Shown here: positions 1-22,976 of the stretch, in pieces
Layout of the letters: each line of letters starts with the position of its first letter
Numbering within the stretch: the stretch's first letter is position 1
Assembly: GCA_965198225.1 (NCBI GenBank)
Contig: CBDAOY010000006.1
Coordinates: forward strand, 32,001-96,000
Length of the DNA stretch: 64,000 bases
DNA from: Terriglobia bacterium
GTDB lineage: Bacteria > Acidobacteriota > Terriglobia > 20CM-2-55-15
Direction of reading: 5' to 3'
The notes under the pieces: generated by a model
Databases searched by the model: none
The model's input: only the letters and a program-made list of their open reading frames with translations
What the model was told of the DNA's origin: nothing
Program-made: the position numbers and the translations under genes

Positions 1-610
1 CGTCAGACCGATGATCGGCCGGTTGACGCCGCGCCTGCTCCGGACTCATGTAGGCGGGCGTGCCCAGCAGTACGCCCTTACCGCCTGCGGCATCCTCGGC
101 CAGCGTTTCGAGGACGGTCTCATCGCCCACTGCAGTGCCGGCATAGGCCTTCGCCAACCCGAAATCCAGGACCTTCACTTTGCCTTCAGACGTGACCTTG
201 ATGTTGGCGGGCTTCAGATCCCGATGGATGACGCCCTTCTCGTGCGCGGCTTCGAGGGCTTCGGCGATCTGGAGTGCGAGTTCGAGGGATTCCTGGACGG
301 GAAGCGGCCCCCGATCCAGTTGTTCCGACAGAGTCTGCCCTTCGACCAACTCCAAAACGAGGAACCGCGTTCCCTCGGACTCTTCCAGCCCGTAGATCGC
401 CGCGATATTCGGATGATTCAGCGAAGCAAGCAGCTTGGCCTCGCGCTCAAAGCGCGCGATCCGTTCGGTATCTTGTGCAAACTCCTCCGGAAGAACCTTG
501 ATCGCGACACTGCGGCCGAGCTTCTTATCGGTTGCCTGATACACCTCGCCCATGCCGCCTTTACCTATGGCAGCGGTGATCTCATAGTGAGCCAGTGTCC
601 TGCCAATCAT
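1..610 (-). CDS. Ser/Thr kinase array copy 1 (5' part; runs off window), subfamily A
   Basis: ATG at 610; reverse complement encodes the same GxGGMGEVY, HRDLKPAN, DFG and GTPAYMSPEQ motifs as copies 2-5. Confidence 0.9.
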   Translation of the reverse strand, partial: MIGRTLAHYEITAAIGKGGMGEVYQATDKKLGRSVAIKVLPEEFAQDTERIARFEREAKLLASLNHPNIAAIYGLEESEGTRFLVLELVEGQTLSEQLDRGPLPVQESLELALQIAEALEAAHEKGVIHRDLKPANIKVTSEGKVKVLDFGLAKAYAGTAVGDETVLETLAEDAAGGKGVLLGTPAYMSPEQARRQPADHRSD

Positions 611-621
611 GCCTTTGTCCC

Positions 622-691
622 GTGTAGGTGCGGTCTATGACCGCACATTCTTCAAACCACGACAACGTGCGCTCATAGAGCGCACCTACAC
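622..691. repeat. REPIN (inverted REP doublet)
   Basis: GTGTAGGTGCGGTCTATGACCGCAC...GTGCGCTCATAGAGCGCACCTACAC; each arm is an 8-bp-stem hairpin with a GTAG end. Confidence 0.9.
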
Positions 692-719
692 TTGCTGGGA
701 TGCAAAAAACGGTGTTGCC

Positions 720-3347
720 TCATTTGCGATTGAGTTCCCCCGTCCAATTGACGACCACACTCACCGGTTTAGGATTGGGGTGCGGCCGCCTCAGAAGGAA
801 TCTATCACCCTCCAGAGTCACGGAATAATGGTTGCGGCTGTCAACCAACCCTGTGATCTGCGGCTCAAATACCCGTTCGGGCGGACCGACGCGAAGATCA
901 CCGGAATCGAGCTCTACACGAACCGCCATGACACGTCGATCTTCTCCGCCAAAAAACAACTCCTCACCGTCGTTCCTCCAACGCGGATGGAATCCGCCCT
1001 CGCTGGATACGCGTCTGGTGTTCTCTCCCGCCGGGAAACTCGTTACGTATATTTCCATAGTGCCGGTTTCTGCGGATGCGTAAGCGACCCAGTTTCCATC
1101 CGGCGAGAAGACGGCGCCATACTCGTAGGAGTCCGAGTCCAGGAGTCTCCAGGGTGCTTGATCACCCAAGACAGGCAAGACCCACACGTCACCCGAGTCT
1201 GCGGGTGAGTCTTCAAACAGAATGAACCGGCCGTCACCGGACCAATCTGTCGGTCTGATCCACTCCGTGTCGACGGCTCCCTCAAACACCAATTCTTCGT
1301 TTCCGCTGACCACATCCTTCACCCACAGGTCAAAGCGATCATTCCGGTCGGTAGCAAAAACGATTCGATCTCCCTGTGGCGACCAAACGGGATCCATGTC
1401 ATACGATGGATTCGATGTGAAACGCGTTGTTGTGTTCCTCTCGACATCGATCAGCCAGATGTCGACGTTTCCAGACGCGGGATCCCGACGGTTCACTGCC
1501 ACCCGTCGCCCGTCCGGCGACAGCGCCGGATTCACAAACTCACCAGATTCAGGTTGGTGAGCCGTCCCCAATTCCTTTCCCTGTCGATCGAACCAGACGA
1601 GCTGGCCATCCACCCCGGGACCGGGCCTGAAGGCCAACATTCCATTCTCCGAAACCGAGAACGGCACGCTGACTTCTCCCAGCACCGAACCAGACACAAC
1701 CAACCGACCGATGGTTTGCGGTTGGTCATCAAGCGCGAGGGTTGCAGGATCGAAACGCTGAGCCATCAAGGTGCCACCTCGTAAGAACAGGATGTGACCA
1801 TCGGCGTACTGGGCTCCAGAGTTCGCATCGAGCAGAAAGCTCGCCCGCCCGGATTCCAACGAAGCAACGTGAACAGCACCAGGGTCCCTATCCGGGTAAA
1901 CGCTATACAGAAAGTGATTCCCGTCGGGCAGAAAGAACGGGAACCCTCGGGGCGTCTCCGGGCTGAACCCATCCTGTACGGCCACCGGTGTTAGCGGGCC
2001 GCCGTCCTCGGGTAAGCGGTTAAGTCCCGCCAGGAGAATCGTGCCGTCGTTGTTCCAGGTACCATTGAAGGACCGTCCATCGTATAGCGTCTGAGGACTT
2101 CCCCCCGAAAGATCAAGCTTCTTCACACGACCCTGATCGGTCGAAAACCCTAACAAACGGTTGTCCGGTGACCAGTACACGCTGGCGGCACCCTCGGTCC
2201 CCGGGAGCGCTTCGGAATGCTCGGATTCGAACGCCCGTAGCCATATCACCCTTTCTCCGTCGGAGTCTGGTCCAATAAAGGCCATCCGCTGGCCGTCTCG
2301 TGCCAAGGCGAATTCCTCGCCGCCAGCTCCCGGCGGTAAAGGGACGACAAAACGCACCGCTTCTGGTTCTCGGTCCGAATCCCCGACCCCGGTGACCAGC
2401 AGAGCCAGGACAGCGATCAGCAACCCTGAAGTTGCCGTAACCCATGCGACGCGTTCCCAGCCCCTCGTGTCAACCTTGACCGGCAACGGGTCTCGCTCAG
2501 CCTCCGCAGCGAGTTCCATGGCGATGCGGACATCACCGATGGCCTGCCACCGACGCTTCGGGATCCTCTCCAGGCAACGTTCGAGAAGTCGTCGAAGGGC
2601 TGGATCGAGGTCGTCCGGCATCGCGCCGAAGTCCGGTTCCCGTTCAAGGATGGCTGCGATGGTGTCGGAGAGCGTGTTGCCTTTGAAGAGCGTCTTTCCG
2701 GTCAACACCTCATAAAGCACGCACCCGAAAGCCCAAACGTCTGACCGATGATCGGCCGGCTGTCTGCGAGCCTGCTCGGGGCTCATGTACGCCGGCGTGC
2801 CGAGAAGGACGCCCCTACCGCTCTCGGAATCCTCCGCCAGCGTTTCAAGGACGGTTTCGTCACCCAGCGCAGTGCCGGCATACGCCTTCGCCAACCCGAA
2901 GTCCAATACCTTTACTTTGCCTTCAGACGTGACCTTGATGTTGGCAGGCTTCAGATCCCGATGGATGACGCCCTTCTCGTACGCGGCTTCGAGGGCTTCC
3001 GCGATTTGGAGGGCGAGTTCGAGGGATTCCTGGACGGGAACCGGACCGCGTTGAAGGCGATCTGCGAGCGTGTCGCCTTCTACCAGCTCCAGAACGAGGA
3101 AGCGCGTACCTTCCGATTCCTCGAGCCCGTAAATTGCCGCGATGTTCGGATGATTCAGCGACGCCAGCAGCTTCGCTTCGCGCTCGAAGCGTGCGACGCG
3201 GTCGCTATCTTGTGCAAACTCTTCAGGCAGGACCTTGATTGCGACATTGCGGCCGAGCTTCCCATCCGTGGCTTGATACACCTCGCCCATACCACCTTTA
3301 CCGATGGCTGCGGTGATTTCGTAGTGGGCCAGTGTCTTGCCAATCAT
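720..3347 (-). CDS. Ser/Thr kinase-TM-TolB-like beta-propeller, copy 2 (intact, 875 aa)
   Basis: VAIK, HRDLKPAN, DFG, MSPE; hydrophobic helix VAWVTATSGLLIAVLALLV; repeated WSPD/FSPDG motifs. Confidence 0.93.
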   Translation of the reverse strand: MIGKTLAHYEITAAIGKGGMGEVYQATDGKLGRNVAIKVLPEEFAQDSDRVARFEREAKLLASLNHPNIAAIYGLEESEGTRFLVLELVEGDTLADRLQRGPVPVQESLELALQIAEALEAAYEKGVIHRDLKPANIKVTSEGKVKVLDFGLAKAYAGTALGDETVLETLAEDSESGRGVLLGTPAYMSPEQARRQPADHRSDVWAFGCVLYEVLTGKTLFKGNTLSDTIAAILEREPDFGAMPDDLDPALRRLLERCLERIPKRRWQAIGDVRIAMELAAEAERDPLPVKVDTRGWERVAWVTATSGLLIAVLALLVTGVGDSDREPEAVRFVVPLPPGAGGEEFALARDGQRMAFIGPDSDGERVIWLRAFESEHSEALPGTEGAASVYWSPDNRLLGFSTDQGRVKKLDLSGGSPQTLYDGRSFNGTWNNDGTILLAGLNRLPEDGGPLTPVAVQDGFSPETPRGFPFFLPDGNHFLYSVYPDRDPGAVHVASLESGRASFLLDANSGAQYADGHILFLRGGTLMAQRFDPATLALDDQPQTIGRLVVSGSVLGEVSVPFSVSENGMLAFRPGPGVDGQLVWFDRQGKELGTAHQPESGEFVNPALSPDGRRVAVNRRDPASGNVDIWLIDVERNTTTRFTSNPSYDMDPVWSPQGDRIVFATDRNDRFDLWVKDVVSGNEELVFEGAVDTEWIRPTDWSGDGRFILFEDSPADSGDVWVLPVLGDQAPWRLLDSDSYEYGAVFSPDGNWVAYASAETGTMEIYVTSFPAGENTRRVSSEGGFHPRWRNDGEELFFGGEDRRVMAVRVELDSGDLRVGPPERVFEPQITGLVDSRNHYSVTLEGDRFLLRRPHPNPKPVSVVVNWTGELNRK

Positions 3348-3349
3348 GG

Positions 3350-5025
3350 TTACGGGACCGGAACCCGTTCCTTCACTTCCTCGATCCAGTTCTGTACGAC
3401 GACAACCCGCCGTGGTGCGAGATTGTCGTCCCCGTCGGGACGGATCATGAGAAAGCGGCCATCTGGGCCTACGTCATACGACGGTGGCTGTACACCCCTG
3501 AGAAGGCTTGTACTGAGAAAGCTTGTCTCGAATAGCTGTTCTGGTGGTTGAAAATCCACGCTGTCTTCGGTCTGAACCGCCACCGCCATCATTGCATCGC
3601 CTTCGAGGTAGTAAAGTTCTCGTCCGTCACGGGCCCAAATTGGCTCGATGCCGCCGTTCGGAGAAACCCGGACCGCCGCGGCGGGCCCAGGGTAGCGTCG
3701 GACCCAGATCTCTGATTGACCGGTCTGGTCGGAAACGTAGGCAAGCCATCGCCCGTCTGGTGAGAGCGCGGCTCCCCAAAACCCTTCGTCGGACGGCGTC
3801 GCGACGATCGGTTCGATCTTGTCGGGCTCCGCGATCGGCCAGCGGACGATGTCGTTTCCGGTATCCCCTCCGAGTTGGAGGCCTGGAGTTCGTCGATCGA
3901 TCTCAGGTACAGTCCGTCGCCCCGGACCATTGCGATCTGGCTGCCGTCCGGTGAGATGGCAAGTATGGACGGACGAACGGAGGTTTCGGGGGACTCCCCT
4001 CCGCCCTGGGGCAGATCGTACTCAAAACGCGTGACCGCCCGGGGTTCCGGCCGAAGCGGTCTCAAGTACCAGGTGAGAGGAATTGCGACCAGAGCGATCA
4101 TCAGGATCGCAACCGCGCACCAAAGAATCGGTCGGGCCTGCGGTTTGGAGTCGGTACCCGGCTCACCTGAACCTGGGCTGGCTAGCGCCGCTTCGACTTC
4201 CAGCCGCACGTCGGCGATCGCGTGCCAACGACGCTTTGGATTCTTTTCCAGGCATCGTTCGAGGAGTCGACGAATGGCGGGACTGAGGTTGTTCGGCAGC
4301 CGGCCGAAGTCCGGCTCACGTTCAAGGATCGCGGCAATCGTGTGCGACAGTGTGTTGCCTTTGAAGACGACCTTGCCAGTCAGCATTTCGAACAGGACAC
4401 AACCAAACGACCAGACATCCGACCGATGATCGGCCGGCTGACGACTGGCCTGTTCCGGACTCATGTAGGCGGGCGTTCCCAAGAGGACGCCCTTGCCGCT
4501 CTCGGCACCCTCGGCCAGCGTTTCCAAAATGGTCTCATCGCCGAGAGCAGCGCCGGCATAGGCCTTCGCCAACCCGAAGTCCAATACCTTCACTTTGCCT
4601 TCGGACGTGACCTTGATGTTGGCGGGCTTCAGATCCCGATGGATGACGCCCTTCTCGTGCGCGGCTTCGAGGGCTTCCGCGATTTGTACGGCGACTTCGA
4701 GTGATTCCTTAACGGGGAGGGGGCCGCGAACCAGTCGTTCCGACAGAGTTTGGCCTTCGACCAGCTCTAAGACGAGGAAGCGCGTTCCTTCGGATTCTTC
4801 CAGTCCGTAGATCGCCGCGATGTTCGGATGGTTCAGCGAGGCGAGCAGCTTGGCCTCACGCTCGAAGCGTGCAACGCGGTCGTTATCTTGTGCAAACTCT
4901 TCAGGCAGGACCTTAATCGCGACATTGCGGCCGAGCTTCCTATCGGTGGCTTGATACACCTCCCCCATGCCACCTTTGCCGATGGCTGCGGTGATCTCGT
5001 AGTGAGCCAGTGTCTTACCGATCAT
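3350..5025 (-). pseudogene. Kinase-propeller copy 3; ~0.95 kb internal deletion with frameshift near 3875
   Basis: Kinase and TM intact; after SIDELQA the sequence jumps, out of frame, to a homolog of the copy 4 C-terminus (NDIVRWPIAEPD...VVQNWIEEVKERVPVP); 1676 bp versus ~2630 bp. Confidence 0.85.
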
Positions 5026-5027
5026 AG

Positions 5028-7660
5028 TTATGGGACCGGAACCCGTTCCTTCACTTCCTCGATCCAGTTTTGTACAACCACCATCCGCCGCGTTGTCACG
5101 CTGTCGCTACGAATCATGAGAAATCGGCCATCAGCGCCTACGTCATAGGACGGTGCTTGACGACGCCTGAGGAAAATTCTCTCGAACAACCGTTCGGGTG
5201 GCTGGAAGTTGAAGGTGTCCTTGGAGTCTACCGCCACGGCCATCACGGAGTTGCCTTCGAGGTAATAGAGTTCTCGTCCATCGCGGGCCCAAACCGGTTC
5301 GATGCCGCCGTTTGGGGACACGCGAACTGGCGCACCAGGCCCCGGATATGGTCGGACCCAGATTTCTGGTTGCCGGTCAGATTGGAATCATAGGCAAGCC
5401 ATCGCCCGTCGGGCGATAGCGTGGCTCCCCAACGACCCTCGTCGGCCGGCGTCGCGACAACCGATTCGAAGTCGTCGGGCTCGGCGATCTGCCAGCGCAC
5501 GATGTCGATTCCGTTCGCTCCTTCGGCGAAGTCTGCCAGCAATTCCAAGCCGTCCCCAGACCACCCGTGCGGATGGAAGTGCCCCTCCGGGGATACGCGC
5601 TCCGGGACAGCGCTGCTGCCATCGGCCGAGACCGCCCACAACGACGACGGGGAGCCGGAACCGTAACCGGAGGCGCCCTCATACACGATACGCTGCCCGT
5701 CCGGCGTCCAGAGTGGCGACAAATTTGATCCGTCAAACGTCACCTTCATGGGGGGCCGCCCGGCCACGTCGTACACCCAAATGTCACCCAGTTCGCTCAT
5801 CGCGAACCGGCTGGCGTCCGGAGAGAGGCGGGGATGCTGAGGTCTCGTGAGCGGCGAATCAGCCAACGCCTCGTCTTCGTGTCCGTCGCGCGTGACCCAA
5901 ACCGGTGTTCCCAATCCCGGCTGTATGCCTTGCGCATAAATCAGCGAACCCGACTCAGAAACGTCAAAATACAACGGCCCAGCAACCCCCCCGCGTAACA
6001 CATTCTGGAGCAGGACTACAGGTGGGCCTGCCTCCCATGTTTCGGGATCAAACCGACGGGCGACAACGTCGTTCTCCAACTGGTAAACGAGATGTCCGGT
6101 CGTCACAAAATAAAAAACGCCGCCGCCGCTGAACAATACCTTTTCGTCTCCCGATTCTAACGACCGCGCCACAACCCGAGCGTCGTAGGCCGGGCCAATT
6201 GCAAACAGGACCGATCTTCTATCCGGCAACACAATCGGATTGAAAATCGATCCCTCCCGCTCAAAGAGGATCTCCGGAATCCCTCCGTTTGCGGAAACGC
6301 TCACGATTGCGGAATTGTTTCCCTGGTTCGTCTGGACGTATAGGATCGAATCGTCTGAAGTCCAGAAGGGCCCGTAAGGCTGTTCCGCTCCGGTCAGAAC
6401 GATCGGCGTGCCGCCGCCGATAGGAACTTTCTTCAGCAGTCCCTCGTTCGGCGACCAGTAACCGACCCATTGAGCGTCCGGTGAAAAGAAGGGAGCGGAG
6501 ATCAACTCTCCCTCGGTGCCGGAGATGTGTCTGGTTGCGATTTCGTCCATCGAGCGTACGACTAGTCCGTCGCTCGAGCCGGAGACGACCTGCCTGCCGT
6601 TCGGTGAAATGGCGAGCGAGAGCCCCCCTTCGAAACGTTCGATCGGGGGCAACTCGTACTCAAAACGCGTGACCGCACGCGGTTCGGGCCGAAGCACAGT
6701 TCTCAGGTACCAGCCCAGGGGAATGGCCATGAGAACGCCTAGAATCGCGACAACGTAGGGAAGTGATCGTGCGCGAGGATTGTCTGGGAGGTCCGCTGGC
6801 ACGAAGACGTCTTCCGTCAACGCCGCTTCGACTTCCAACCGCACATCGCCGATTGCTTGCCAGCGGCGCTTAGGATTCTTTTCCAGGCAACGCTTGAGGA
6901 GTCGGCGAATGGCTGGGCTGAGATCGGTTGGTGTGGTGCCGAACTCCGGCTCGCGTTCGAGGATGGCGGCAATCGTGTCGGAGAGCGTGTTTCCTTTGAA
7001 GAGGGTCTTGCCGGACAGCATCTCGAACAGCACACACCCGAAAGCCCACACATCGGACCGATGATCAGCCGGTTGACACCTAGCCTGCTCCGGACTCATG
7101 TAGGCCGGGGTTCCAAGCAGGACGCCCTTGCCGCTTTCGGCATCCTCCGTCAGTGTTTCAAGGATGGTTTCATCGCCCACCGCCGTGCCGGCATAGGCCT
7201 TCGCCAACCCGAAGTCCAACACCTTTACTTTGCCCTCGGACGTGACCTTGATGTTGGCGGGCTTCAGGTCCCGATGAATGACACCCTTCTCATGCGCGGC
7301 TTCGAGGGCTTCGGCGATTTGCAGGGCGAGTTCGAGAGATTCCTGGACGGGAAGGGGACCGCGAACCAGTCGTTCTGAAAGAGTCTGGCCGTCGACCAAC
7401 TCCAAAACGAGGAAGCGCGTTCCCTCAGATTGTTCGAGCCCATAGATCGCCGCGATGTTCGGATGGTTCAGCGAAGCAAGCAGTTTGGCCTCACGCTCGA
7501 AGCGTGCGACTCGTTCTGTATCTTGTGCAAACTCCTCAGGCAGGACCTTGATCGCGACATTGCGACCCAGCTTCCTATCGGTAGCCTGATACACCTCCCC
7601 CATGCCACCTTTGCCGATGGCAGCAGTGATCTCGTAGTGGGCCAGTGTCTTGCCGATCAT
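5028..7660 (-). pseudogene. Kinase-propeller copy 4; 1-nt frameshift near 5373
   Basis: 805 aa + 97 aa ORFs; ACCGGCAACCAGAAATCTGG versus copy 3 ACCGGTCAATCAGAGATCTGG shows one missing base. Confidence 0.8.
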
Positions 7661-10278
7661 GGCACCGGCACCTTTTCCTTCAACTCCTCGAACCAGTTCT
7701 GGACGACGTTGATCCGGCGTGGAGTTGCGAGCGCGCCCGTTGCTCCTCCTGGGATAATCAAGAAGCGTTCGTGTTCGGGATCGAAGCCGTCCACGCGGAA
7801 GTCAAACGGGAGTTCGAAAAGGGTTTGGACTTCACCTCGCCTGAAATCCGGTTGGGTCTGGACCGTCACGGCCATCATCTTCTGGTAATCCGGACCTACA
7901 CCGCGAAAGTAGAGCCGGTTCCCGTCCTGCGACCAGGTGTTCCAGCCGCCCTGGGGACCGTTCGCGGTGTAAACCAGGCGGCCGGATCCAGGCCCGGGGA
8001 AGGGCGTCACCCACAACTGGTTCCCATCGTCTGTCACTCGCAAATAAGAAATCCATCTTCCGTCCGGGGAAAAATTGGCTGCTCCTGCGTTCTCGGTCTG
8101 CGATTTTGCACTGCCCTCCTCGACGGAAAACACCCAGACGGTTCCCTGCCCCCGCAGCCCCGAAGTAAAAACCATGAATCGGCCGTCGGCGGACCAGTTC
8201 GTCTCGAGCACTCTCTGCTCGTGCTCCCAGAGCAGCTGGGGCGGTTCGCTGCCATCGGCCTTCTGCCAGTAGATGCGTTCCTCGATCGCATACGTCACCC
8301 GTTCGCCGTCGGCGGACCAGGCCAGTGCCAGAACCGGCTGGTCCTCATCCGTCAGCTGAACAGGAGTTCCGGTTTCCACGTCGTAGACCCAGATGGACCT
8401 TGACCTTCCGTCCTCGCCGTCGGCAAGGGCCGCGATCCGCCGACCATCGGGTGAACTAACGGACCTGCGATACGTTTGCGGTCCGTCGAGGAGGGTGGTG
8501 ACCTCGCCATCGAGGCTCACCCACTGAACGCTGGACGTCTGACCTGTCCAGTGACCCGGCAGGTAGGCAAGCGTTCCGGAAGCACCGAAAGACGCGTGCA
8601 CACTGCTGGTGGTGAAAACCTCTTTCATCACGGACATCGGTGTTCCTCGGAGCTCAAGGTCGTCGACGTCGAAAGGAACTGCGACCAACTCGCCTCCCCG
8701 TCCGTAGACGAGATGGCCGGTTGGCGCGTAGCGAGCGTCGATGCCTCCCTCAAACAAGACTGTGCGTTCGTCGGATCCCACCGATTGGACGATCCGCAGA
8801 GCCGGTTCAAACCCATGATATCGCCCGAAAAGCACCGACTTTCCGTCGGACAACATCTGGGGCACGCCAAGGAACTCGCCCTCGCGCGCCGGGATCAACA
8901 ACTCTGGAGTGCCGCCGCCGGCAGAAACTCTCAGTATTCCGCCTCGATCCCCGTAGAGGACCGCATCGCTGTCCAACCAACTGCCCATATTGTACCGGGG
9001 TGCTTCTGTGAGAGCTTCCGGGGCGCCACCCTCGATCGCAACCTTCCTGAGCTCACGTGTCGCGCCCGAGAAATACGCGATCCACCGCCCGTCCGGCGAA
9101 AAGAACGGATCTTGCGCGCCATTCGTTCCGGCAATGGGCGTGACGGCATCCCGGCCGAGGTCCCAGACGTGGAGCTGTCCGTTTGCGACATAGACGATCT
9201 GGGTCCCATCGGGCGAGACCGTGAGGACGGGTAGCGTAAGGCTAGGTCCGAAAGCTTGATCGTCGGGAAGCTCCAGATGAAAACGCGTCATGGGGCTCGG
9301 TTCAGTTGGGACTGGCGGCTTCAAGTACCACCCACCAACGGCTGCGACTACTACGGCCATCGCCAATGTCGCCGCATAGGGAAGCAAGTGCCGCCGCTGG
9401 GGTGTCGCTTCCCCAAGGGCTCCCGCCGGACTGGAAAGTGTTTCTTCGATCTCCAACCGTACGTCCGCGATCGCATGCCACCGACGCTTCGGGTTCTTGT
9501 CCAGGCAACGTTCGAGCAGTCGTCGAATGCCTGGATTGAGGTGGCGTGGCAGGTCAGCAAGATTCGGTTCGCGCTCAAGGATTGCTGCGATCGTGTCGGA
9601 GAGCGTGTTCCCTTTGAAAGGGGTTCTTCCTGTTAACATTTCGAACAGCACACACCCGAACGCCCAGACATCAGACCGATGATCGGCCGGCTGCCGTCGC
9701 GCCTGCTCCGGGCTCATGTACGCCGGCGTGCCAAGCAGCACTCCCTTGGCGCTCTCGGCATTCTCCGCCAGCGTTTCAAGGACCGTTTCATCGCCCATCG
9801 CCGTACCGGCATAGGCCTTCGCCAGCCCGAAGTCCAACACCTTTACTTTGCCTTCGGACGTGACCTTGATGTTGGCGGGCTTCAGGTCCCGATGGATGAC
9901 GCCCTTCTCGTGGGCGGCTTCGAGGGCTTCGGCGATCTGGAGGGCGAGTTCGAGGGATTCCTGGACGGGAAGGGGCCCGCGGACCAGTCGTTCCGAAAGA
10001 GTCTGGCCTTCGACCAACTCCAGGACGAGGAAGCGTGTTCCCTCGGATTGCTCCAGCCCGTAGATAGCCGCGATGTTGGGATGGTTCAATGACGCAAGCA
10101 GCTTGGCTTCACGTTCGAAGCGTGCGACCCGTTCGGCGTCGCTCGCGAATTCCTCAGGCAGAACCTTGATCGCCACACTCCGGCCGAGCTTCGTATCGGT
10201 GGCCTGATACACCTCTCCCATGCCACCTTTACCGATGGCCCGGGTGATTTCGTAATGGGCCAGTGTCTTGCCGATCAT
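7657..10278 (-). CDS. Ser/Thr kinase-TM-beta-propeller, copy 5 (intact, 873 aa)
   Basis: All kinase motifs, TM LLPYAATLAMAVVVAAVGGWYL, SPDG repeats; stop overlaps the copy 4 start (ATGA). Confidence 0.93.
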   Translation of the reverse strand: MIGKTLAHYEITRAIGKGGMGEVYQATDTKLGRSVAIKVLPEEFASDAERVARFEREAKLLASLNHPNIAAIYGLEQSEGTRFLVLELVEGQTLSERLVRGPLPVQESLELALQIAEALEAAHEKGVIHRDLKPANIKVTSEGKVKVLDFGLAKAYAGTAMGDETVLETLAENAESAKGVLLGTPAYMSPEQARRQPADHRSDVWAFGCVLFEMLTGRTPFKGNTLSDTIAAILEREPNLADLPRHLNPGIRRLLERCLDKNPKRRWHAIADVRLEIEETLSSPAGALGEATPQRRHLLPYAATLAMAVVVAAVGGWYLKPPVPTEPSPMTRFHLELPDDQAFGPSLTLPVLTVSPDGTQIVYVANGQLHVWDLGRDAVTPIAGTNGAQDPFFSPDGRWIAYFSGATRELRKVAIEGGAPEALTEAPRYNMGSWLDSDAVLYGDRGGILRVSAGGGTPELLIPAREGEFLGVPQMLSDGKSVLFGRYHGFEPALRIVQSVGSDERTVLFEGGIDARYAPTGHLVYGRGGELVAVPFDVDDLELRGTPMSVMKEVFTTSSVHASFGASGTLAYLPGHWTGQTSSVQWVSLDGEVTTLLDGPQTYRRSVSSPDGRRIAALADGEDGRSRSIWVYDVETGTPVQLTDEDQPVLALAWSADGERVTYAIEERIYWQKADGSEPPQLLWEHEQRVLETNWSADGRFMVFTSGLRGQGTVWVFSVEEGSAKSQTENAGAANFSPDGRWISYLRVTDDGNQLWVTPFPGPGSGRLVYTANGPQGGWNTWSQDGNRLYFRGVGPDYQKMMAVTVQTQPDFRRGEVQTLFELPFDFRVDGFDPEHERFLIIPGGATGALATPRRINVVQNWFEELKEKVPVP

Positions 10279-10289
10279 AAGTTCGTTAC

Positions 10290-10360
10290 GTGTAGGTGCG
10301 GTCTATGACCGCACGTCTTTGCAGGCCTGACTTTTGTGCGCTCATAGAGCGCACCTACAC
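10290..10360. repeat. REPIN
   Basis: Same two arms as 622-691. Confidence 0.9.
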
Positions 10361-10420
10361 CTGGGGCGATGCGACATAGCGTCGCTTGTTTTGAATTCAA
10401 TCGGTTGACCTCTCTCCGCA

Positions 10421-13074
10421 TCAGCTGCTACCAGGCCAGCCCTTCCTGACATGGATTACGTCGGAGCCGGGTTGTTCGACACCCTGGACGAAGTAGAAGC
10501 GAGAACCATCAGGGGATACGGCCAGAGGACTCATTCGTGGCACAAGATACGCGGGCGCACGGACGGAGAACAGCCGTTCCGGGCGTGAGAAGTTCAAGGT
10601 TCTCCCTTCGGCCCTGACCCGTACGGACCAGACGAACCGCATAGCGTCTTCGAAGTCCAGATAGGCGATTTCCTTCCCGTCCCCGCGCCACTGGGGATTG
10701 AGGCCGTTCCCAATCGATTGTCTGTTCTCGACCCCGCCTGGAAAAGGCTGGACGTAGATCGCACTCGTTCCGTTCTCATCAATTATCCCGTAAACGATCC
10801 ATTGGCCATCGGGGGAGAATCTCGGCGTATAGACTGTGTCTCCTGTGTCGACAAGAAGCCTATCGGTGCCCTCGCCAGCCCCAACCCGTGCGGAAGAAGC
10901 GGTTAAGCCCGGCCCCGTGTAAAGAATCTCGGTGCCATCCGGCGAAGTGTCCTCCGGGAAGCCGGCTGTCACCAGCCCCATCTGCTGGGGATCGGCCGAA
11001 CCGTCGACGGGGCGTTCGAAGATCCGCCACGGAGGCCCGTCCTCGACCGAGGCCAACCCGAGAAGGCCGGAGCCGTCCGGAACCCAGAACCAAACACCGG
11101 CTCCGAGAGGGTTGCGGCCGGACTGGTTCGGACGCAGGAGCCATTTGCCGTCGGCTAGCAGACGCGTTCCATCCGGCGAGAGAACGATTGAGCCCAGAGC
11201 GCCCTCTGGCCCGGCCGTCTCGATCTCGTTGCCCTGACGGTCAAGACCGTCACCTGAGCCAGGGCGGCCCGTCCTGGCCGCCATGCCAGCGTTCCGGAGT
11301 GCGAAACGGAAAAGTGTGCTGTAAAACTGGTGATACCCGGCATCGAGGCGACATTCTCCTCGACGAGCTCGGCATCGCCTTCCAGACGCCGCTGGTCGAC
11401 GTTCAGAGTCTGGGCATACAGGTTGTCGTTCCGGATGAAGAGGAGCCGCCCGCCGCCGGCCGGCGTGTAACGGGCTGCCGTCGTCGCCGGTAGCAGTCGG
11501 ACAGGATTGGTGGCGTTGCCGTCCTGGAACGTCGCCAGATAGATGTCTCCCCCTTCGTCTTCTTCTCTGTCGGAATCGATGGGCACGAACAGAAACATGA
11601 AGTCTTCACTGTCCGGCAGGAAGTGCGGATAAAAGAAAGCACCTTCTTCCAGACCAGGCACCTCCACCGGTCGGAATTCACCACCGGAGTCTCCCGTCGC
11701 GAACAACTCGAAAGAAGTTTCACCAACATGAGAAAGCAGGATTGTGCCGTCGTGACTCCACGTGCCGCCGCGAGTAGGGCCGATTGACTCCGCGATGGAT
11801 TCGGGCGCGCCATCGGGCACGCGAACCTTGATGAGGCCAGTGGTCGAGGGAAACACCACGTGCCGGGAGTCAGGGGACCAGAATGCCGCGTTACTGATCG
11901 GGATCCCGCCGAGTGGAAGGGGTTCGAAGGAATCGAGGGGGCGCACCCAGATTCCACCACCCGATTGGAACAGCAAAGAAGAGCCGTCCGGGGAGATCTC
12001 AGGAGTTGCGGCCAGGCCGCCGACGGGGCGAAAAGAGCTTCCGTCGGGAGGAAGGACGGTGAGCTCGAAGCCGGAACCCGGCCCGGTCGCCGGCATCCGA
12101 TCAAAGTAGGGTAGGTACACGAATAGGGCAATCAGCGATGCGGCGGCGGCGACCGCCCAGGCCACCCGTTCCCGACCTGGTCTCGAGCTTGTGAACTCGC
12201 GGTCGACTACGGCCGCAGCGTCCGCCGCGCCTTGGACGATCCACCTCAGCTCGCGCATCAAATCGCCGGCGCTCTGCCAGCGGTCGTCCGGGTCCTTTGC
12301 GAGGCACTGACGTACCAATCGATCCAACGCTGCCGGTACCAGCTCGTGAAGCTCGGACATGGGTCGCGGGTCATTCTGCATGATCGCAGCGATCAGGCTC
12401 GCCTGGCTCGCTCCCTCGAAGGCCTTCCTCCCTGTGACTGTCTCGTAGAACACGGTACCGAACGCGAAGATATCCGTCCGGGCATCGGTATCGCGGCTCT
12501 CAAGCTGTTCGGGGGCCATGTACTGAAGCGTGCCGAGGATCTCCCCTTCCACCGTCAACGGCTCCTTCTCTTCAACCGTGGACCGTTCCTCGAGCGAGGC
12601 TCGTTTCGTGTCGAGCTTGGCCAGACCGAAGTCCAGCAGCTTCACGCCCGACTTCGTCACCATGATGTTGCCGGGCTTGAGATCCCGATGGACGACGCCC
12701 TGCCGGTGTGCCTTATCGAGCGCGTCGGCGATCTGGATGGCGTACTCCAGCGCCTGATCGAGGTTCAGCGAGCCTTTCTCCAGCCTCTTGGCTAGCGTTT
12801 CTCCCTCGACGTACTCCATGACGAGGTAGTGGATGCCGTCGGCTTCGCCGATGTCGTGGAGCGTGCAGATGTGGGGGTGGTTCAGGCTGCTGACGGCCCG
12901 GGCTTCACGCTCGAAGCGTTCCCGGCGCCTGGGATCGTCGGCGAGGTGTTCGGGGAGAACCTTGATCGCAACGGTGCGGTCCAGGCGGGTGTCGGTCGCC
13001 TGATACACCTCTCCCATGCCACCTTTGCCGATGGCCCGGGTGATTTCGTAGTGAGCCAGTGTCTTGCCGATCAT
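10421..13074 (-). pseudogene. Kinase-propeller copy 6 (subfamily B); 1-nt frameshift near 11243
   Basis: 639 aa + 287 aa ORFs; QVTV joins DRQGNE in another frame, matching the QLVWFDRxG motif of paralogs. Confidence 0.8.
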
Positions 13075-13085
13075 AAGTTCGCTAA

Positions 13086-13147
13086 GTGTAGGTGCGGTCT
13101 ATGACCGCACGTCTTTGCTTTTGTGCGCTCATAGAGCGCACCTACAC
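13086..13147. repeat. REPIN
   Basis: Same arms with a short spacer. Confidence 0.9.
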
Positions 13148-13177
13148 TCGCTGGGATTCGAAACAACGCGCCGTGCT

Positions 13178-15826
13178 TCATTGGTTTTCCTCTAGGAGGG
13201 ATGTCCAATTGAGGAAGACCGAAATCGACGCGGGCACTTCATTGCGAATGGTTGGGACGAGGAAGCGCTCGCCGTCACCCGCTGCCGCGTACCGATTCCT
13301 TATGTCGAATGGACCCAATGGCGAGGGTTCCAGGCTCAGTTCGAACAACGTTTCCGGTAAAGCTGCCTCGAGTGTCGAAGAGGTCGTTTCAACCTGAACC
13401 GCCATCAAATTGGAATCCGGATCAAGGTAAAAAATCTCCGTACCGTCGCGTTTCCACCCTGGCTGTCCGCCGCCATCGGTTGAAATTTTCCACTTTCCAA
13501 GACCAGTCGGAAAACTTTGGACGTAAACCTCATGGCTGCCCGACTCGTTCGAGACGTACGTAATCCATCTTCCGTCCGGCGACAATTGAGCGTGGCGTTC
13601 GTCGAACAATGTCTCCAGCAAGGGCTCCGGTTCTCTGTCTCCGATCAACGGCAACAGCCACACGTCCCAGTTGCCTGCCTGATTCAACTTTTCGTAGATA
13701 ACGACCGGACCGTCCGGGGACCAGTCGGTCGGATAGATTTCATCGCTCGCGCTCAATAGCTCTTCGGCTTGACCGGAACCGCTCGACGATTTCAGGTTCA
13801 AAGACCAGGAACCAGTCTCTGTTGAACTGGAGTAGACGATCGAGCTGCCGTCGGATGCCCAGACGGCACTCTGATCGTGAGAATCCTGATCGAATGTGAA
13901 TCGGGAGGTTGTGCCCCGTGACAACTCCAGTAGCCACAAGTTCATCCCGGTTTCGGCGTGCCGCTCGATGACCACTCTTTCTTCGTCCGGTGAAAACCAC
14001 GGGCCATAGTAACCACTCCTAACAACAGGGCTTGCGGTGCCCAGTTCCTGTCCCTTACGGTCGAACCAAACAAGCTGGGTTGAAAGGTTGAGCTGACCAC
14101 TAGGAATCCCGGCTACAACTCCGTTGACCGATGACGAGACGGCAAGACTGAGGTCGGTGGCTATTGGTACGGGCTCACCTTCGATGCGTAGGTTTGCTGC
14201 ATCGAACGGAATAGCCTCCAGCGTACCTGCGCGTGCGAGCAGAAGGTGTCCCAGTGCGTAGTTGACGATCAGGAAACCGTCCATCAGGTGCGTCGTTTCT
14301 CCCGAATCGAGCGACCCGACGTAGACACCTGCGCCCTCGCTATTTACAGCGATATAGAGAAAATGGCGGCCATCAGGCAGGAAATGCGGCCACAGGTGTC
14401 TGTCTTCCCGCCTCGCCTGGTCCAGCGTTGTCACGGGGATCGCATCGCCGCCATCCTCTGACACTCGATACAGTCCACCTCCCGTCGAGATATTGTCTGT
14501 AAATACTATTTCGCCCTCTGCGTTCCAGGTCCCGCTCAAAAACGCGTTGACGGCGCACAGCGGCTGTGCCTGCCGAAGTTGCCCGCCGGATCTCGCAACT
14601 TTTTGAAGCATTGCCCCATCTGAAAAGCCAATGAACCGGCTGTCAGGCGACCAAAAAGCCATACCTACGGCACCTTCGGTTCCGGGCACGGGTCGCAACT
14701 CACGAGAGTCGAGATCGCGTAGCCAAATCTTGGAGCTCCCCGACTCGTTGGCCACGATAGCGATGTGCCGACCGTCCGGAGAGACCGCGCCTGGAAGGCG
14801 AAACATAAGTCCGTCAGGGGGTGAGATTTCGAAACGAGTCAGTGGCGCGGTCGATTGCGACTGGCGGTAGAGGGCGAATCCGAAAAAGATGGCCAAGATC
14901 GAAGCCAGCACCGTCGTCACGAGCAGGACGCGTTCTAGCAGCTTGTTTCGCCTCGTGACCGATGGGGACAACGTCGAGCCTTCATCGGTAATCCCTTCCA
15001 GCTGCAATACCACATCGTGAATTGCACTCCAGCGCCGGTCCGGATCCTTCGCCAGGCATCTCCTTACCACCCGGTCGAGCAGGCTCGGCACGCCGGTTCG
15101 CACGGACGACATCGGCGCAGGCTCCGACTGAAGAATTGCCGCGATGAGGTTGGCCGAGCGTTCTCCCTGGAACGCCTTCTTTCCGGTCACCATTTCGTAG
15201 ATCATGGCGCCAAACGCGAAGACGTCCGTCCGGGCATCGGTGTCGCGGCCCTCCAATTGTTCGGGGGCCATGTACTGGAGCGTGCCGAGGATCTCTCCTT
15301 CCACCGTCAGCGGTTCCTTCTCTTCGACCGTGGATTGCTGTTCGAGTGGGGCGCGTCGCGCTTCAAGCTTCGCCAGGCCGAAGTCCAGAAGCTTCACGCC
15401 CGACTGGGTCAACATGATGTTGCCGGGTTTCAGGTTCCGATGGACGACACCCTGTCGGTGCGCTTTGTCGAGGGCGTCGGCGATCTGGATGGCGTACTCC
15501 AGCGCCTGGTCGAGCTTCAGGGGTCCCCTCGCCAGCCGGCTGGCCAGCGTGTCCCCCTCGACGTACTCCATGACGATGTAGTGGATGCCGTCGGCTTCGC
15601 CGATGTCGTGGAGCGTGCAGATGTGCGGGTGGTTCAGGCTGCTGACGGCCCGTGCTTCGCGCTCGAATCGTTCCCGGCGCTTGGGATCGTCGGCGAGGTG
15701 TTCGGGGAGAACCTTGATCGCCACGGTGCGGTCCAGACGCGCGTCGGTCGCCTGATACACCTCTCCCATGCCACCTTTGCCGATGGCTCGGGTGATTTCG
15801 TAGTGAGCCAGTGTCTTGCCGATCAT
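13178..15826 (-). CDS. Kinase-TM-beta-propeller copy 7 (882 aa), catalytic loop HRN, probable pseudokinase
   Basis: Intact ORF; VHRNLKPGN (codon 15434-15436 = AAC) where paralogs have GAC/GAT. Confidence 0.9.
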   Translation of the reverse strand: MIGKTLAHYEITRAIGKGGMGEVYQATDARLDRTVAIKVLPEHLADDPKRRERFEREARAVSSLNHPHICTLHDIGEADGIHYIVMEYVEGDTLASRLARGPLKLDQALEYAIQIADALDKAHRQGVVHRNLKPGNIMLTQSGVKLLDFGLAKLEARRAPLEQQSTVEEKEPLTVEGEILGTLQYMAPEQLEGRDTDARTDVFAFGAMIYEMVTGKKAFQGERSANLIAAILQSEPAPMSSVRTGVPSLLDRVVRRCLAKDPDRRWSAIHDVVLQLEGITDEGSTLSPSVTRRNKLLERVLLVTTVLASILAIFFGFALYRQSQSTAPLTRFEISPPDGLMFRLPGAVSPDGRHIAIVANESGSSKIWLRDLDSRELRPVPGTEGAVGMAFWSPDSRFIGFSDGAMLQKVARSGGQLRQAQPLCAVNAFLSGTWNAEGEIVFTDNISTGGGLYRVSEDGGDAIPVTTLDQARREDRHLWPHFLPDGRHFLYIAVNSEGAGVYVGSLDSGETTHLMDGFLIVNYALGHLLLARAGTLEAIPFDAANLRIEGEPVPIATDLSLAVSSSVNGVVAGIPSGQLNLSTQLVWFDRKGQELGTASPVVRSGYYGPWFSPDEERVVIERHAETGMNLWLLELSRGTTSRFTFDQDSHDQSAVWASDGSSIVYSSSTETGSWSLNLKSSSGSGQAEELLSASDEIYPTDWSPDGPVVIYEKLNQAGNWDVWLLPLIGDREPEPLLETLFDERHAQLSPDGRWITYVSNESGSHEVYVQSFPTGLGKWKISTDGGGQPGWKRDGTEIFYLDPDSNLMAVQVETTSSTLEAALPETLFELSLEPSPLGPFDIRNRYAAAGDGERFLVPTIRNEVPASISVFLNWTSLLEENQ

Positions 15827-15837
15827 AAGTTCACTAC

Positions 15838-15899
15838 GTGTAGGTGCGGTCTATGACCGCACGTCTTTGTTTTTGTGCGCTCATAGAGCGCACCTACAC
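15838..15899. repeat. REPIN
   Basis: Same arms. Confidence 0.9.
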
Positions 15900-15941
15900 T
15901 TGCTGGGATGCTAAACAACGGTCCGAGTTGGGTGCCGGAGG

Positions 15942-18363
15942 TCATTGGTTTTCTTCGATGAGGGACGTCCAGTTGAGGAGGACTGAAATCGACGTGGGCG
16001 CCGCATCATCGACGAGCGTATCGACGAGGAAGCGCTGGCCATCACTGGTGGCGAGGTATTGGTTCCTGCCGCCGAGCGGGCCTGCAAGGGCCGTTGGTTG
16101 GAGGTTCGGTTCGAACAGCTTTTGTGGAGAAGCCACCTCCAGCGCCGTTCCACCGGTTGCAAGCTGAACGGCCACCAGGTTAGTGTCCGGAGCGATGTAG
16201 AACACTTCCTTTCCGTCACGTCTCCATTTCGGCTGGCTGCCGCCATCCGTGGAAATCTGCCATTTGCCACCGCCCGTCGGGAAAGTCTGCGCGTAAATCT
16301 CCGCTCGCCCGGATTCGTTCGACGTGTAGAGAATCCACTTCCCATCCGGAGAGAATTGAGCCTGGCCTTCATCGAAAGGCGTTTCCAGCAGAGGTTCCGG
16401 TTCTTGATCCCGCGTCAGGGACAAAAGCCATACATCCCGGTCGCCCGCTCTGTTCAGCTTGTCGTAGAGAACGATAGAGCCGTCCAAAGACCAATCGGTC
16501 GGACTAATTAGCCCGGTGGACTCGACCAGCTGTTCGTCCTGACCCGTGCCGCTCGAGGGTCTCCGATTCAAAGACCAGACGCCGGCCTTCTCGCTTGTGT
16601 AGACGATGGAGCTCCCGTCCGGCGCCCAGACAGGGTATTGATCATGCGAATCCTGGTCGAATGTGAATCGCGAAGTCGTGCCCCGTGACAATTCGAGCAG
16701 CCACAAGTTCAGTCCAGTTTCGGCATGCCGTTCAAAGACGACTGTCCGTTCGTCGGGTGAAAACCACGGGAAGTAGTGCCCGGCGTTGTCGGCTGCGGTT
16801 GCGGTGCCCAACTCCTGTCCTTCGCGGTCGAACCAAACGAGCTGCGAGAGGGTAACCGATCCCGCGGGAGTGCCGGCTATGACGCCGTTGATCGAGGCCG
16901 ACAGAATACCGCCCAGACCTGTAGCGACCGGTATCGGGTCACCGGTCCGGCGAAGTCTGGTCGAGCGCGGTGAGGTGTGTTGCCTCGCCGCCCTCCTCGG
17001 AAACCCTGTACAGGACATCTCCGCTCGGTCCAGCAGGTGCAAAGACGATATCGCCTTGAGTATTCCAGGTTGCTCCCACCAATCCGATGGCCGCGCACAA
17101 CAGCTTGGGCGAACCGCCGGCCAGGCTGATTGTTTGAAGCGTACTCCCATCCGAAAAACCGATGAACTGACTGTCGGGTGACCAGAAGGCCCCAAATGGG
17201 TACGCCCCTTCGGTTCCGGGCACAGGTCGCATTTCCGCGGAGTCGAGATCCCGCAGCCAGATTTGCACCTCGCCGGAAGAACGATCCCGTGCCGCTGTGG
17301 CGATCTTCCGTCCATCCGGGGACACAGCAGGTGGGCCGAGAAGGATGAGGTCTTCTGGAGGTGTGACTTCAAGGCGTCGAAAAGGTGGTTCCGTTGTTAC
17401 GGTCTGCCGGTACAGTGTCGAGGAGATGAAGGCGACTGAGAGAACCAGGGTGACAGCTACTAAGACCCTTTCCCGGGTCTTGGAGTCCCTCGACGTAGGG
17501 GGCGACACTCCCCCATCTTCTTCACGTATCCCGTCGAGCTGCAGAACGACGTCGTGCAAGGCACTCCATCGATCGTCCGGGTCTTTGGCCAGGCATCTAG
17601 TGACCACTCGGTCCAGCAGGCGCGGCACGCCAGTTCGCACGGACGACATCGGTGTATGTTCCGACTGAAGAATTGCCGCGATGAGGTTTGCCGAGCGTTC
17701 TCCTTCGAACGCCTTCTTGCCAGTGACCATCTCGTAGAGAACGGCGCCAAAAGCGAATATGTCCGTCCGGGCGTCGGTATCGCGACCCTCCAACTGCTCC
17801 GGGGCCATGTACTGGAGCGTACCTAGGATCTCTCCTTCCACCGTCAGCGGTTCCTTTTCTTCGACGGTGGATTGCTGTTCCAGCGGAGCCGACTTCGCTT
17901 CGAGCTTCGCCAGGCCGAAGTCCAGCAGCTTCACGCCCGACTTGGTCAGCATGATGTTGCCGGGCTTCAGGTCCCGATGGACGACACCCTGCCGGTGCGC
18001 CTTGTCGAGTGCGTCGGCGATCTGGATGGCGTATTCCAGCGCCTGGTCGAGCTTCAGCGGTCCCTTCTCCAGTCGCCTGGCTAACGTCTCCCCGTCGACG
18101 TACTCCATGACGATGTAGTGGATGCCGTCGGCTTCGCCGATGTCGTGGAGCGTGCAGATGTGCGGGTGGTTCAGGCTGCTGACGGCCCGTGCTTCGCGCT
18201 CGAATCGTTCCCGGCGCCTGGGATCGCCGGCGAGGTGTTCGGGGAGGACCTTGATCGCCACGGTGCGGTCCAGACGCGCGTCGGTCGCCTGATACACCTC
18301 TCCCATGCCACCTTTGCCGATGGCCCGGGTGATTTCGTAATGAGCCAGTGTCTTGCCGATCAT
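15942..18363 (-). pseudogene. Kinase-propeller copy 8; ~230 bp internal deletion with frameshift near 16955
   Basis: 474 aa + 476 aa overlapping ORFs; relative to copy 7 the segment between LDQ and LRxxGxP is missing. Confidence 0.85.
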
Positions 18364-18374
18364 AAGTTCGTTAC

Positions 18375-18445
18375 GTGTAGGTGCGGTCTATGACCGCACG
18401 TCTTTGCTGTCCTGACTTTTGTGCGCTCATGGAGCGCACCTACAC
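18375..18445. repeat. REPIN
   Basis: Same arms; one loop variant (CATGG). Confidence 0.9.
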
Positions 18446-18482
18446 GTGTCCTTTGGCTCGAACGAGGCTAAAAGTTAGGCCA

Positions 18483-18511
18483 ATACTATGAAAGAAAGAT
18501 TTGTCGGTCAA
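18483..18511 (-). promoter_or_regulatory. Putative sigma70 promoter for the kinase array
   Basis: Minus strand TTGACC-17 nt-TAGTAT in an AT-rich gap upstream of copy 8. Confidence 0.55.
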
Positions 18512-18591: not shown

Positions 18592-18960
18592 CTACCGGAC
18601 CGACACAAGACTGTGATCGACCAGGATATCGGTTTCATCGAACACCAGGACCAGGCTGTATCTTTGTTCGCCACCCCAAGGTCGATCCCACCTGGCCGGC
18701 CTCCCCTGGAGTGATCTTCGGTGGGCGCCTACGGACTTGAAGGACTCATCCAGTCGATACGCGACAACGCGCCCGTTCTCGAACTCGGCGAACATCTCGC
18801 CGAGTTGCGCGATCACCGCCTCCCGACTGCTGTGACCATCTTCGAGGAACGAGATGGCGCTGGAGCGAACCTCCGTCGGATCTACAAGCCGCAGTTTCCG
18901 GGCGCAGCCGGTGATGTCGAGGAGTAACACGGCGCAGAGAAACAGCCGGATAGTTCGCAT
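18592..18960 (-). CDS. Lipoprotein, SmpA/BamE-like domain
   Basis: Lipobox ITGC; GHSSREAVIAQLG...LVLVFDETDIL pattern; GAGGA RBS. Confidence 0.65.
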   Translation of the reverse strand: MRTIRLFLCAVLLLDITGCARKLRLVDPTEVRSSAISFLEDGHSSREAVIAQLGEMFAEFENGRVVAYRLDESFKSVGAHRRSLQGRPARWDRPWGGEQRYSLVLVFDETDILVDHSLVSVR

Positions 18961-18974
18961 GAGATCCTCCTCGT

Positions 18975-20608: not shown

Positions 20609-20633
20609 TGGATCTCTCCGCCTTTCTGTTAGG

Positions 20634-21545: not shown

Positions 21546-21561
21546 CGTTCGTCTTCGAAAG

Positions 21562-22971: not shown

Positions 22972-22976
22972 TGTGT

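Follow-up and report, generated by a model that had tools for sequence, protein, structure and literature searches.

The window analysed here is a stretch of 64,000 nucleotides (nt; positions 32,001 to 96,000 of contig C6, G000:C6:32001-96000) from the genome of a Terriglobia bacterium of the phylum Acidobacteriota, G000, which is assembled in nine contigs and is 97% complete. Its minus strand carries, at positions 1-18363, a head-to-tail array of exactly eight genes of one architecture, a kinase domain followed by a transmembrane (TM) helix and a PD40-type ectodomain (G1-G8). G1 extends past the start of the window to C6:30007 and, read from the genome, is an intact open reading frame (ORF) of 867 aa; the nearest further kinase genes on the contig, at C6:12885-14930 and beyond, lie more than 15 kb off. 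Compared over residues 1-275, the kinases are of an A-type (G1-G5) or a B-type (G6-G8). Between the genes lie either stop-start couplings or REPINs, which are inverted doublets of repetitive extragenic palindromes (REPs). The features of the array are listed here in window coordinates; G002 is a second genome of the same genus.

1-610, minus strand: 5' part of G1, the kinase domain (Pfam Pkinase E 3.9e-40; GKGGMGEV, VAIK, HRD and DFG present).
622-691, no strand: REPIN separating the stop of G2 from the start of G1; two inverted GTAG-type REPs with a spacer of 20 nt (predicted hairpin -52.1 kcal/mol, z -7.8).
720-3347, minus strand: G2, intact, 875 aa; a chimera with an A-type kinase and an ectodomain from another lineage.
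3350-5025, minus strand: G3, broken; kinase, TM helix and about 45 aa of ectodomain in frame (ORF 3589-5025, 478 aa).
5028-7660, minus strand: G4, broken by a 1-nt deletion near 5371 (ORF 5243-7660, 805 aa).
7657-10278, minus strand: G5, intact, 873 aa; its end and the start of G4 overlap as ATGA, and its ectodomain is modelled as two beta-propellers.
10290-10360, no strand: REPIN preceding the G5 start, with a 21-nt spacer; the same junction in G002 retains part of it.
10421-13074, minus strand: G6, broken; a 1-nt frameshift near 11225 splits it into ORFs 11155-13074 and 10421-11284.
13086-13147, no strand: REPIN upstream of G6, spacer 12 nt, a deletion variant common to the G7 REPIN.
13178-15826, minus strand: G7, intact, 882 aa; HRN instead of the catalytic HRD.
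15838-15899, no strand: REPIN upstream of G7, spacer 12 nt.
15942-18363, minus strand: G8, broken; two overlapping ORFs, 16939-18363 and 15942-17372.
18375-18445, no strand: REPIN upstream of G8, following the promoter-like site; spacer 21 nt.
18483-18511, minus strand: promoter-like site TTGACC-17 nt-TAGTAT at the head of the array (consensus match only).

An earlier note on this DNA had described at least eight head-to-tail paralogs with a TM helix and divergent C-termini, joined at each junction by a REPIN or a stop-start coupling and headed by one candidate promoter. The outline holds, with REPINs at five junctions and couplings at three. The promoter-like site is the single one in the 19 kb of minus strand scanned (18511-18483), and it is a match to consensus without statistical support from the scan, because the scan overall returned 2 sites against 4.1 expected in shuffles. 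A closely similar site, TTGACG-17-TAGTAT, heads the array of G002 in the same arrangement.

What kind of protein do these genes encode? All eight match Pfam Pkinase (PF00069) with E values of 4e-40 to 2e-56 and 138-192 bits, against a cut-off of 31.7, and PD40 matches fall in the C-terminal halves of G2, G4, G5, G6, G7 and G8. Scored by the Kyte-Doolittle hydrophobicity of 19-mers, each of the eight proteins has one hydrophobic 19-mer, which starts at residues 298-304 and has a mean of 1.86-2.63. A pattern search made for this analysis found the catalytic motifs (Gly-rich loop, VAIK Lys, HRD, DFG and (A/S)PE) complete in seven of the eight. The exception is G7, the sole intact B-type gene, which reads HRN in place of HRD at codon 131 and may encode a pseudokinase. 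G1, G2 and G5 are thus the genes that are intact and carry all the catalytic motifs.

An AlphaFold2 model of G5 residues 322-873, built on an alignment of 48 sequences, is all beta (mean predicted local distance difference test score 92.2; predicted template modelling score 0.86). Its top Foldseek matches in the PDB are two-propeller proteins, namely tricorn protease (1k32), Aip1 (1nr0) and LRP6, with E values of 1e-17 to 1e-14; the TM-scores of these matches (a structural similarity measure) are low, about 0.3, as would be expected if the two propellers were set at another angle. The Pkinase and PD40 matches, the TM peak and the G5 model together point to a bitopic receptor-like Hanks kinase with a predicted double PD40 propeller outside the membrane. 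An identity as TolB was considered and rejected. The ectodomain shares with TolB the repeat type only and is fused to a kinase; PD40 repeats alone match, without a TolB N-terminal domain, and no tol-pal genes lie nearby.

Half of the array is broken (G3, G4, G6 and G8), as are three of the six copies in G002, which bears out the decay proposed in the earlier note. The lesions differ from gene to gene. G3 has lost about 1.1 kb of ectodomain relative to G4, and some 170 of its C-terminal codons survive in another frame; in G4 the last 110 or so codons, downstream of the 1-nt deletion, are open in another frame; G8 is 227 nt shorter than G7 and misses about 75 ectodomain codons. A single frameshift common to G3 and G4 was rejected by three-frame translations, in which G3 shows its large deletion and G4 its own 1-nt deletion.

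The lesions recur in metagenome contigs that were compared with the window; the contigs come from sequencing runs of three studies, and one of these runs may be of the source sample of the genome. Contig joints with sides shorter than 30 nt at repeats were left out. Gap-free contigs cover the G4 lesion in X1, X5 and X8 and the G6 lesion in X1 and X5; on G3 they come from X1, X2 and X5 (3362-4581) and on G8 from X1 and X2, spanning 15873-17854. All these contigs end at the kinase and REPIN repeats and are therefore silent on gene order, copy number and rearranged forms. X2 also holds, in one contig each, a 10-nt deletion at window position 10263, right where G5 begins, and a 7-nt one at 11452, inside G6. 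Either these are variants of strains in which more copies are broken, or the contigs come from a close relative.

G002, assembled as one contig, has a six-gene array at the same place, with homologous flanks. It comprises five A-type genes (H1-H5) and one B-type gene (H6); H1, H3 and H5 are intact, and H2, H4 and H6 are broken. Both arrays follow the order A-type then B-type, G6 is the positional orthologue of H6, and kinase DNA identity reaches 88% for G6-H6 and 89% for G3-H3. G7 and G8 have no counterparts in G002. As the array is syntenic at the same place in both, it is older than both species. The earlier note had asked whether relatives carry an identical array; G002 has six genes where eight stand here, and this difference in copy number supports the duplication that the note proposed. 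The junctions of the G002 array are stop-start coupled and none carries a REPIN. The H6-to-H5 junction matches the G6-to-G5 junction of the window through the first 16 nt or so of the REP; from there on it nearly repeats the H4-to-H3 junction of G002 itself and continues into the kinase start. The switch falls inside the REP, and an ancestral REPIN has thus been overwritten by a copied tract of junction plus kinase.

Upstream of the array, the genes between the promoter region and an FAD-oxidase gene (window 18592-22990) are absent at the syntenic place in G002. One encodes a protein of 122 aa whose signal peptide is lipoprotein-like and another an LCM-type methyltransferase; two further ORFs are without a Pfam match.

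The two halves of the proteins differ strongly in similarity. Kinase amino acid identity is 86-91% among A-type genes, 82-92% among B-type genes and 51-54% between the types; ectodomain identity is 29-46% for all pairs except G7/G8, which reach 56-65%. The earlier note had seen near-identical kinases within each subfamily beside very divergent ectodomains. The contrast stands (ectodomains 29-65%), whereas "near-identical" overstates kinases that are 82-92% alike and, in the A-type, 82-86% identical as DNA over 825 nt. The ratio of nonsynonymous to synonymous change (dN/dS), which the note had proposed to compare domain by domain, is 0.07-0.11 for the kinases and 0.21-0.41 for the ectodomains.

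Are the two halves equally old? Synonymous divergence (dS) of the ectodomains by the Nei-Gojobori method (NG86) is saturated or undefined, and differences were therefore counted at fourfold-degenerate sites of residues conserved in both genes. Among the A-type paralogs of the window this silent-site difference is 0.37-0.48 in the kinase and 0.63-0.70 in the ectodomain, where base composition predicts saturation at 0.67 and 0.71, respectively. For the true orthologues G4 and H3 the two halves are alike, at 0.43 and 0.44. The paralogous kinase halves are therefore about as old as the species split and the sensor halves much older. Younger kinase halves joined to older sensors fit a copying of the kinase module.

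Three further comparisons touch the kinase sequences. Concerted evolution, or wholesale homogenisation, since the species split has left no sign, as own paralogs are no closer than cross-species pairs. A conversion tract that would join the REPIN and the first 60 nt or so of G5 to the B-type genes is weak, since all A/B pairs, H5/H6 included, are 82-97% alike there. The first 270 nt or so of the B-type kinase of G6 and H6 (window 12835-13074 against L011) are 88-97% identical between the species. They are conserved at the DNA level despite a typical between-species silent difference of about 0.43 and despite H6 being a pseudogene.

The trees single out G2. In a tree of 44 kinase domains (41 from full-length genes of this genome plus H1, H3 and H5), G1, G2, G4, G5, H1, H3 and H5 form one star-like clade on a long stem with unresolved tips, with a support of 100 in the Shimodaira-Hasegawa-like approximate likelihood ratio test (SH-aLRT), and G7 falls in a different clade. 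The ectodomain tree groups G1 and G5 with H1 and H5, and G4 with H3, and places G2 with two genes of other arrays that carry B-type kinases (SH-aLRT 100). The group of seven was chosen from the kinase tree, ahead of any view of the ectodomain tree; a single ectodomain clade for it is rejected in the approximately unbiased (AU) test with p 1e-109; reciprocally, placing the G2 kinase with its ectodomain partners is rejected with p 6e-6. Around residues 270-285 the identity of G2 to the A-type genes drops, from 73-97% before to about 20-30% beyond. By tree and breakpoint alike, G2 is a chimera, joined just after the kinase domain, in support of the shuffling named in the earlier note. Shuffling is firmly shown for one gene (G2) and one junction (in G002); we infer it for the rest.

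A kinase-propeller gene of 790 aa on the minus strand at window 30334-32706, 12 kb upstream of the array, falls in a distant clade of the kinase tree.

At the junctions, five of the eight genes (G1, G5, G6, G7 and G8) are preceded by a REPIN, two inverted copies of a 25-nt palindrome headed by GTAG, that ends 10-11 nt before the ATG; two further REPINs lie just downstream of G1. As RNA, the array REPINs are predicted to form long hairpins, with energies from -44.5 to -52.1 kcal/mol and z from -4.7 to -7.8, and hairpins so close to start codons may affect mRNA stability or translation. The remaining three junctions have stop and start overlapping or a few nt apart, the arrangement of translational coupling: G5/G4 overlap as ATGA, and G4/G3 and G3/G2 read TAA, 2 nt and ATG. 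At G4/G3 and G3/G2 only the ancestral frame has the coupling, because G4 and G3 are frame-broken upstream. The REPINs before G1, G6 and G7 have in common the flank atcccagc(a/g)a, from which the genome-wide flank consensus differs, and the spacers come in one form common to the G5 and G8 REPINs and a 9-nt-shorter one common to those of G6 and G7. These locus-specific flanks and shared spacer variants show that gene copying took the REPINs with it, and the fixed, non-random offset from the ATG follows from this.

The REP belongs to a large family. This genome holds 900 GTAG-headed copies at up to 5 substitutions. Two variants predominate, with 296 and 180 exact copies, and are set apart by one compensated change of a stem base pair, a G-C/C-G swap. 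At up to 2 mismatches there are 675 copies here and 0 for a reversed control, 96 in the same-genus genome G001 and 100 in G006, of another genus in the same family; same-genus G002 has 0 and same-genus G003 has 1. Any copy of the array's REP occurs in 8 of the 20 genomes searched. Of 332 inverted doublets in this genome, 319 have one relative orientation, with 20 nt as the commonest spacer, and 266 of these 319 head-to-head doublets pair one REP variant with the other. The unlike arms can be seen at window 10290-10360, where the stem is GTGCGGTC/GACCGCAC in one arm and GTGCGCTC/GAGCGCAC in the other; as the arms are different REPs, each forms a perfect small hairpin and the long REPIN hairpin has two mismatches. 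Five doublets of the same family also stand in a row, with a regular 95-nt period, at window 24802-25251 (C6:56802-57251). Near kinase genes the REP is sparse: it lies within 150 nt upstream of the start in 8 of 67 cases in the genome, five of them in the array and 3 of 59 elsewhere. The density in the array, 5 doublets per 20 kb, equals the local background, with 56 REPs counted in the contig's first 100 kb. By copy number and distribution, the REPINs look like passengers of a genome-wide family that are not special to the array.

Is there a REP-associated tyrosine transposase (RAYT) for this family? The earlier note had suggested looking for one flanked by these REPs, and none was found in this assembly, although with nine contigs its absence is unproven. 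The Y1 transposase domain PF01797 has 0 matches in this genome (97% complete), and the RAYT-like gene of G001 described below has no homologue in the assembly (best tblastn E 0.068). The Y1-like proteins of G002 and G003 were rejected as the cognate RAYT, as they are not flanked by this REP; in this genome they match only a truncated fragment of 202 codons that is without the HUH part and has no REPs nearby. The fragment is present in both copies of a 3.4-kb stretch (G000:C6:1055378-1058836 against G000:C8:594922-598380, 3,458 of 3,459 nt identical); this stretch either has been truly duplicated or results from overlap in the assembly near the C6 end. In G001 (L014, G001:C70, 2125-2787), a 163-aa RAYT-like ORF with HUH and Tyr motifs is directly followed by four REPs of the family and is likely, by these motifs and its position, to encode the cognate transposase. 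REPtrons can be lost through deletion (PMC3733652).

Taken as a whole, the array is probably a birth-and-death tandem family of bitopic receptor kinases, shaped by copying of the kinase half, divergence of the sensors and decay, with the REPINs as passengers. The protein of each intact gene comprises a Hanks-type kinase in the cytoplasm, a single membrane helix and, in the periplasm, a predicted sensor made of two beta-propellers of the PD40 type. By likeness to other receptor kinases, the binding of a ligand outside would control kinase activity inside, and each sensor half would recognise something different. In such a family, genes of the array would be duplicated or lost, and the kinase half together with its upstream junction would be copied among neighbours by gene conversion or unequal crossing-over. 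This copying would keep the kinases of G1-G5 alike while the sensors are anciently different, and would once have produced the plain chimera, G2. Copies also decay, as G3, G4, G6 and G8 have been broken and G7 has lost its catalytic Asp. A REPIN probably inserted just upstream of a start codon in the ancestor and was later carried along with the copied unit.

Several results weigh against this interpretation, and most of them favour an array made by selection only, in which the duplications are old, the kinase is under strong purifying selection, the ectodomains evolve fast or under relaxed constraint and no copying has occurred except for the event that made G2. The kinase dN/dS, well below that of the ectodomains, shows that strong purifying selection explains much of the similarity at the protein level. 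Cross-species pairs of this genome and G002 are 79-89% identical in kinase DNA, so that the own paralogs, at 82-86%, are no closer. The separate kinase and ectodomain trees that the earlier note had called for are incongruent with G2 included, but without G2 a single ectodomain clade (G1, G4, G5, H1, H3 and H5) is not rejected in the AU test (p 0.283); with G2 left out, tree topology is thus no proof of shuffling and the case rests on silent-site depth. That depth has a caveat of its own: A-type and B-type kinases differ by 0.47-0.60 only at silent sites, which may therefore be constrained in the kinase, making the contrast between the halves smaller than the raw figures. Neighbours in other arrays, with just 46-63% kinase identity, also speak for selection only. 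Nevertheless, we consider selection as the sole agent unlikely. Silent sites should be indifferent to protein constraint, yet in a given paralog pair their depth in one half is about three times that in the other, and it is equal in both halves of the orthologues G4 and H3; the kinase clade is star-like on a long stem; and the copied tract at the G002 junction reaches into the kinase start. A further point is that gene order rests on the assembly and on synteny, as the metagenome contigs break at the repeats. The array could accordingly be mis-ordered, collapsed or expanded and its frameshifts sequencing errors, for the kinase halves and REPINs are just the repeats that break short-read contigs and the genome is in nine contigs. 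Such an artefact is very improbable: all unique ectodomain stretches, including the four lesions, are matched with 0 gaps by contigs of two or three studies, and the complete same-genus genome G002 has the same A-then-B order and the same flanks.

Could the REPINs themselves have built the array? The earlier note named REPINs as RAYT substrates and recombination hotspots; in that role they would structure and drive the array, creating, shuffling and delimiting the copies. The idea of REPINs organising an array is attractive. They stand at five of eight junctions at a fixed offset from the ATG, two more lie just downstream of G1, the sole recombination breakpoint mapped in G002 is inside a REP, and G7 and G8, which have no counterpart there, are each preceded by a REPIN. 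However, the G002 array has undergone turnover, truncation and junction copying without junction REPINs, in a genome with no copy of this REP at up to 2 mismatches, and three junctions of the window are also without one. In addition, few of the other kinase starts in the genome have a REP upstream, the density in the array is that of its surroundings, none of these REPs occurs in five other Acidobacteriota arrays, no RAYT was found in this assembly and the breakpoint of G2 falls where its kinase domain ends, not at a REPIN. With a REPIN-free G002 array and a background density, the driving role is unsupported here and we hold it to be quite improbable; nor is there support for "cassette-like" in the sense of a programmed switching system.

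The array is one of many. Pkinase has 92 matches in this genome; many of them lie in tandem arrays, many are fragments, and 41 genes are full length. With the G5 ectodomain as query, 5,755 of 8,000 candidates were scored as relatives; those with names are annotated as protein kinase or Tol biopolymer transport component, and the named genome records are mostly Acidobacteriota (Vicinamibacterales, Terriglobia and Thermoanaerobaculia), with some Phycisphaerales and Gemmatimonadota. The kinase-propeller family is huge in Acidobacteriota. Among 35 loci of relatives of at least 20 kb, 14 have two or more kinases and two have seven or eight in a row. In five arrays of relatives the median kinase identity of neighbours is 50-89%, and this REP is in none of the five; the similarity among G1-G5 is at the high end relative to these arrays.

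Soil Acidobacteriota carry dozens of kinase-propeller genes per genome, none with a known ligand, and no experimental study of any kinase-PD40 family member was found in the literature searched. A shared, exchangeable kinase joined to old and diverse sensors offers a hypothesis for the size of the family, many inputs and few outputs. It is possible, and we put it forward tentatively, that the array is a repertoire of sensors on one output, in which copying of the kinase half and junction couples old sensors to the same substrates while sensors are gained, swapped and discarded, that this recurs across phyla, and that the REPIN hairpins could set the relative expression of the copies. The intact genes G1, G2 and G5 are candidates for ligand and substrate work.

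How does the locus compare with known systems? The REPs resemble the GTAG-type REPs and REPINs with RAYT, in the available part of their description, in the GTAG-tagged 25-nt palindrome, the inverted doublets with a spacer of about 20 nt, the hundreds of intergenic copies and the REP-flanked RAYT-like gene of G001 (PMC3733652). They are unlike those described in that part in that a RAYT was not found in this assembly and that the arms are of mixed variants (PMC3733652). No description of such kinase arrays was found in the literature searched, where only a paper on the Ser/Thr kinase paralogs of Candidatus Solibacter usitatus Ellin6076 turned up (PMC3174227). As far as the accessible portion of that paper goes, Ellin6076 has a large Ser/Thr kinase paralog family under purifying selection, with no positive selection; the likeness to this genome is that of a large paralog family under purifying selection in a soil acidobacterium, whereas tandem arrays, a PD40 sensor, exchange of kinase halves and pseudogenisation are not described in that portion (PMC3174227).

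If the tentative scheme of many sensors on one output is true, modular birth-and-death would be a general bacterial counterpart of the receptor-kinase clusters of eukaryotes. In plants, clusters of receptor-like kinases arise by tandem duplication and combine a conserved kinase with fast-diverging ectodomains and frequent pseudogenes. The array shares all four traits. Unlike the plant clusters, it has an ectodomain of another fold and operon-like stop-start coupling in a bacterium, and the two have no common descent. The analogy drawn in the earlier note is thus fair for birth-and-death evolution and extends to nothing beyond it.

PknD of Mycobacterium tuberculosis is a receptor kinase with a Hanks kinase, one TM helix and an extracellular beta-propeller. 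By analogy, it appears to be the closest studied example, with the same succession of N-terminal kinase, single TM helix and C-terminal propeller outside the membrane. The sensor of the array would have two PD40/TolB-type propellers in about 550 aa, whereas that of PknD is one six-bladed NHL propeller, and the family of the array has some 70 members per genome, in tandem arrays. The proteins therefore belong with the known bacterial receptor Ser/Thr kinases that have a propeller as sensor, from which they differ in the double PD40 sensor and in the modular evolution of the array.

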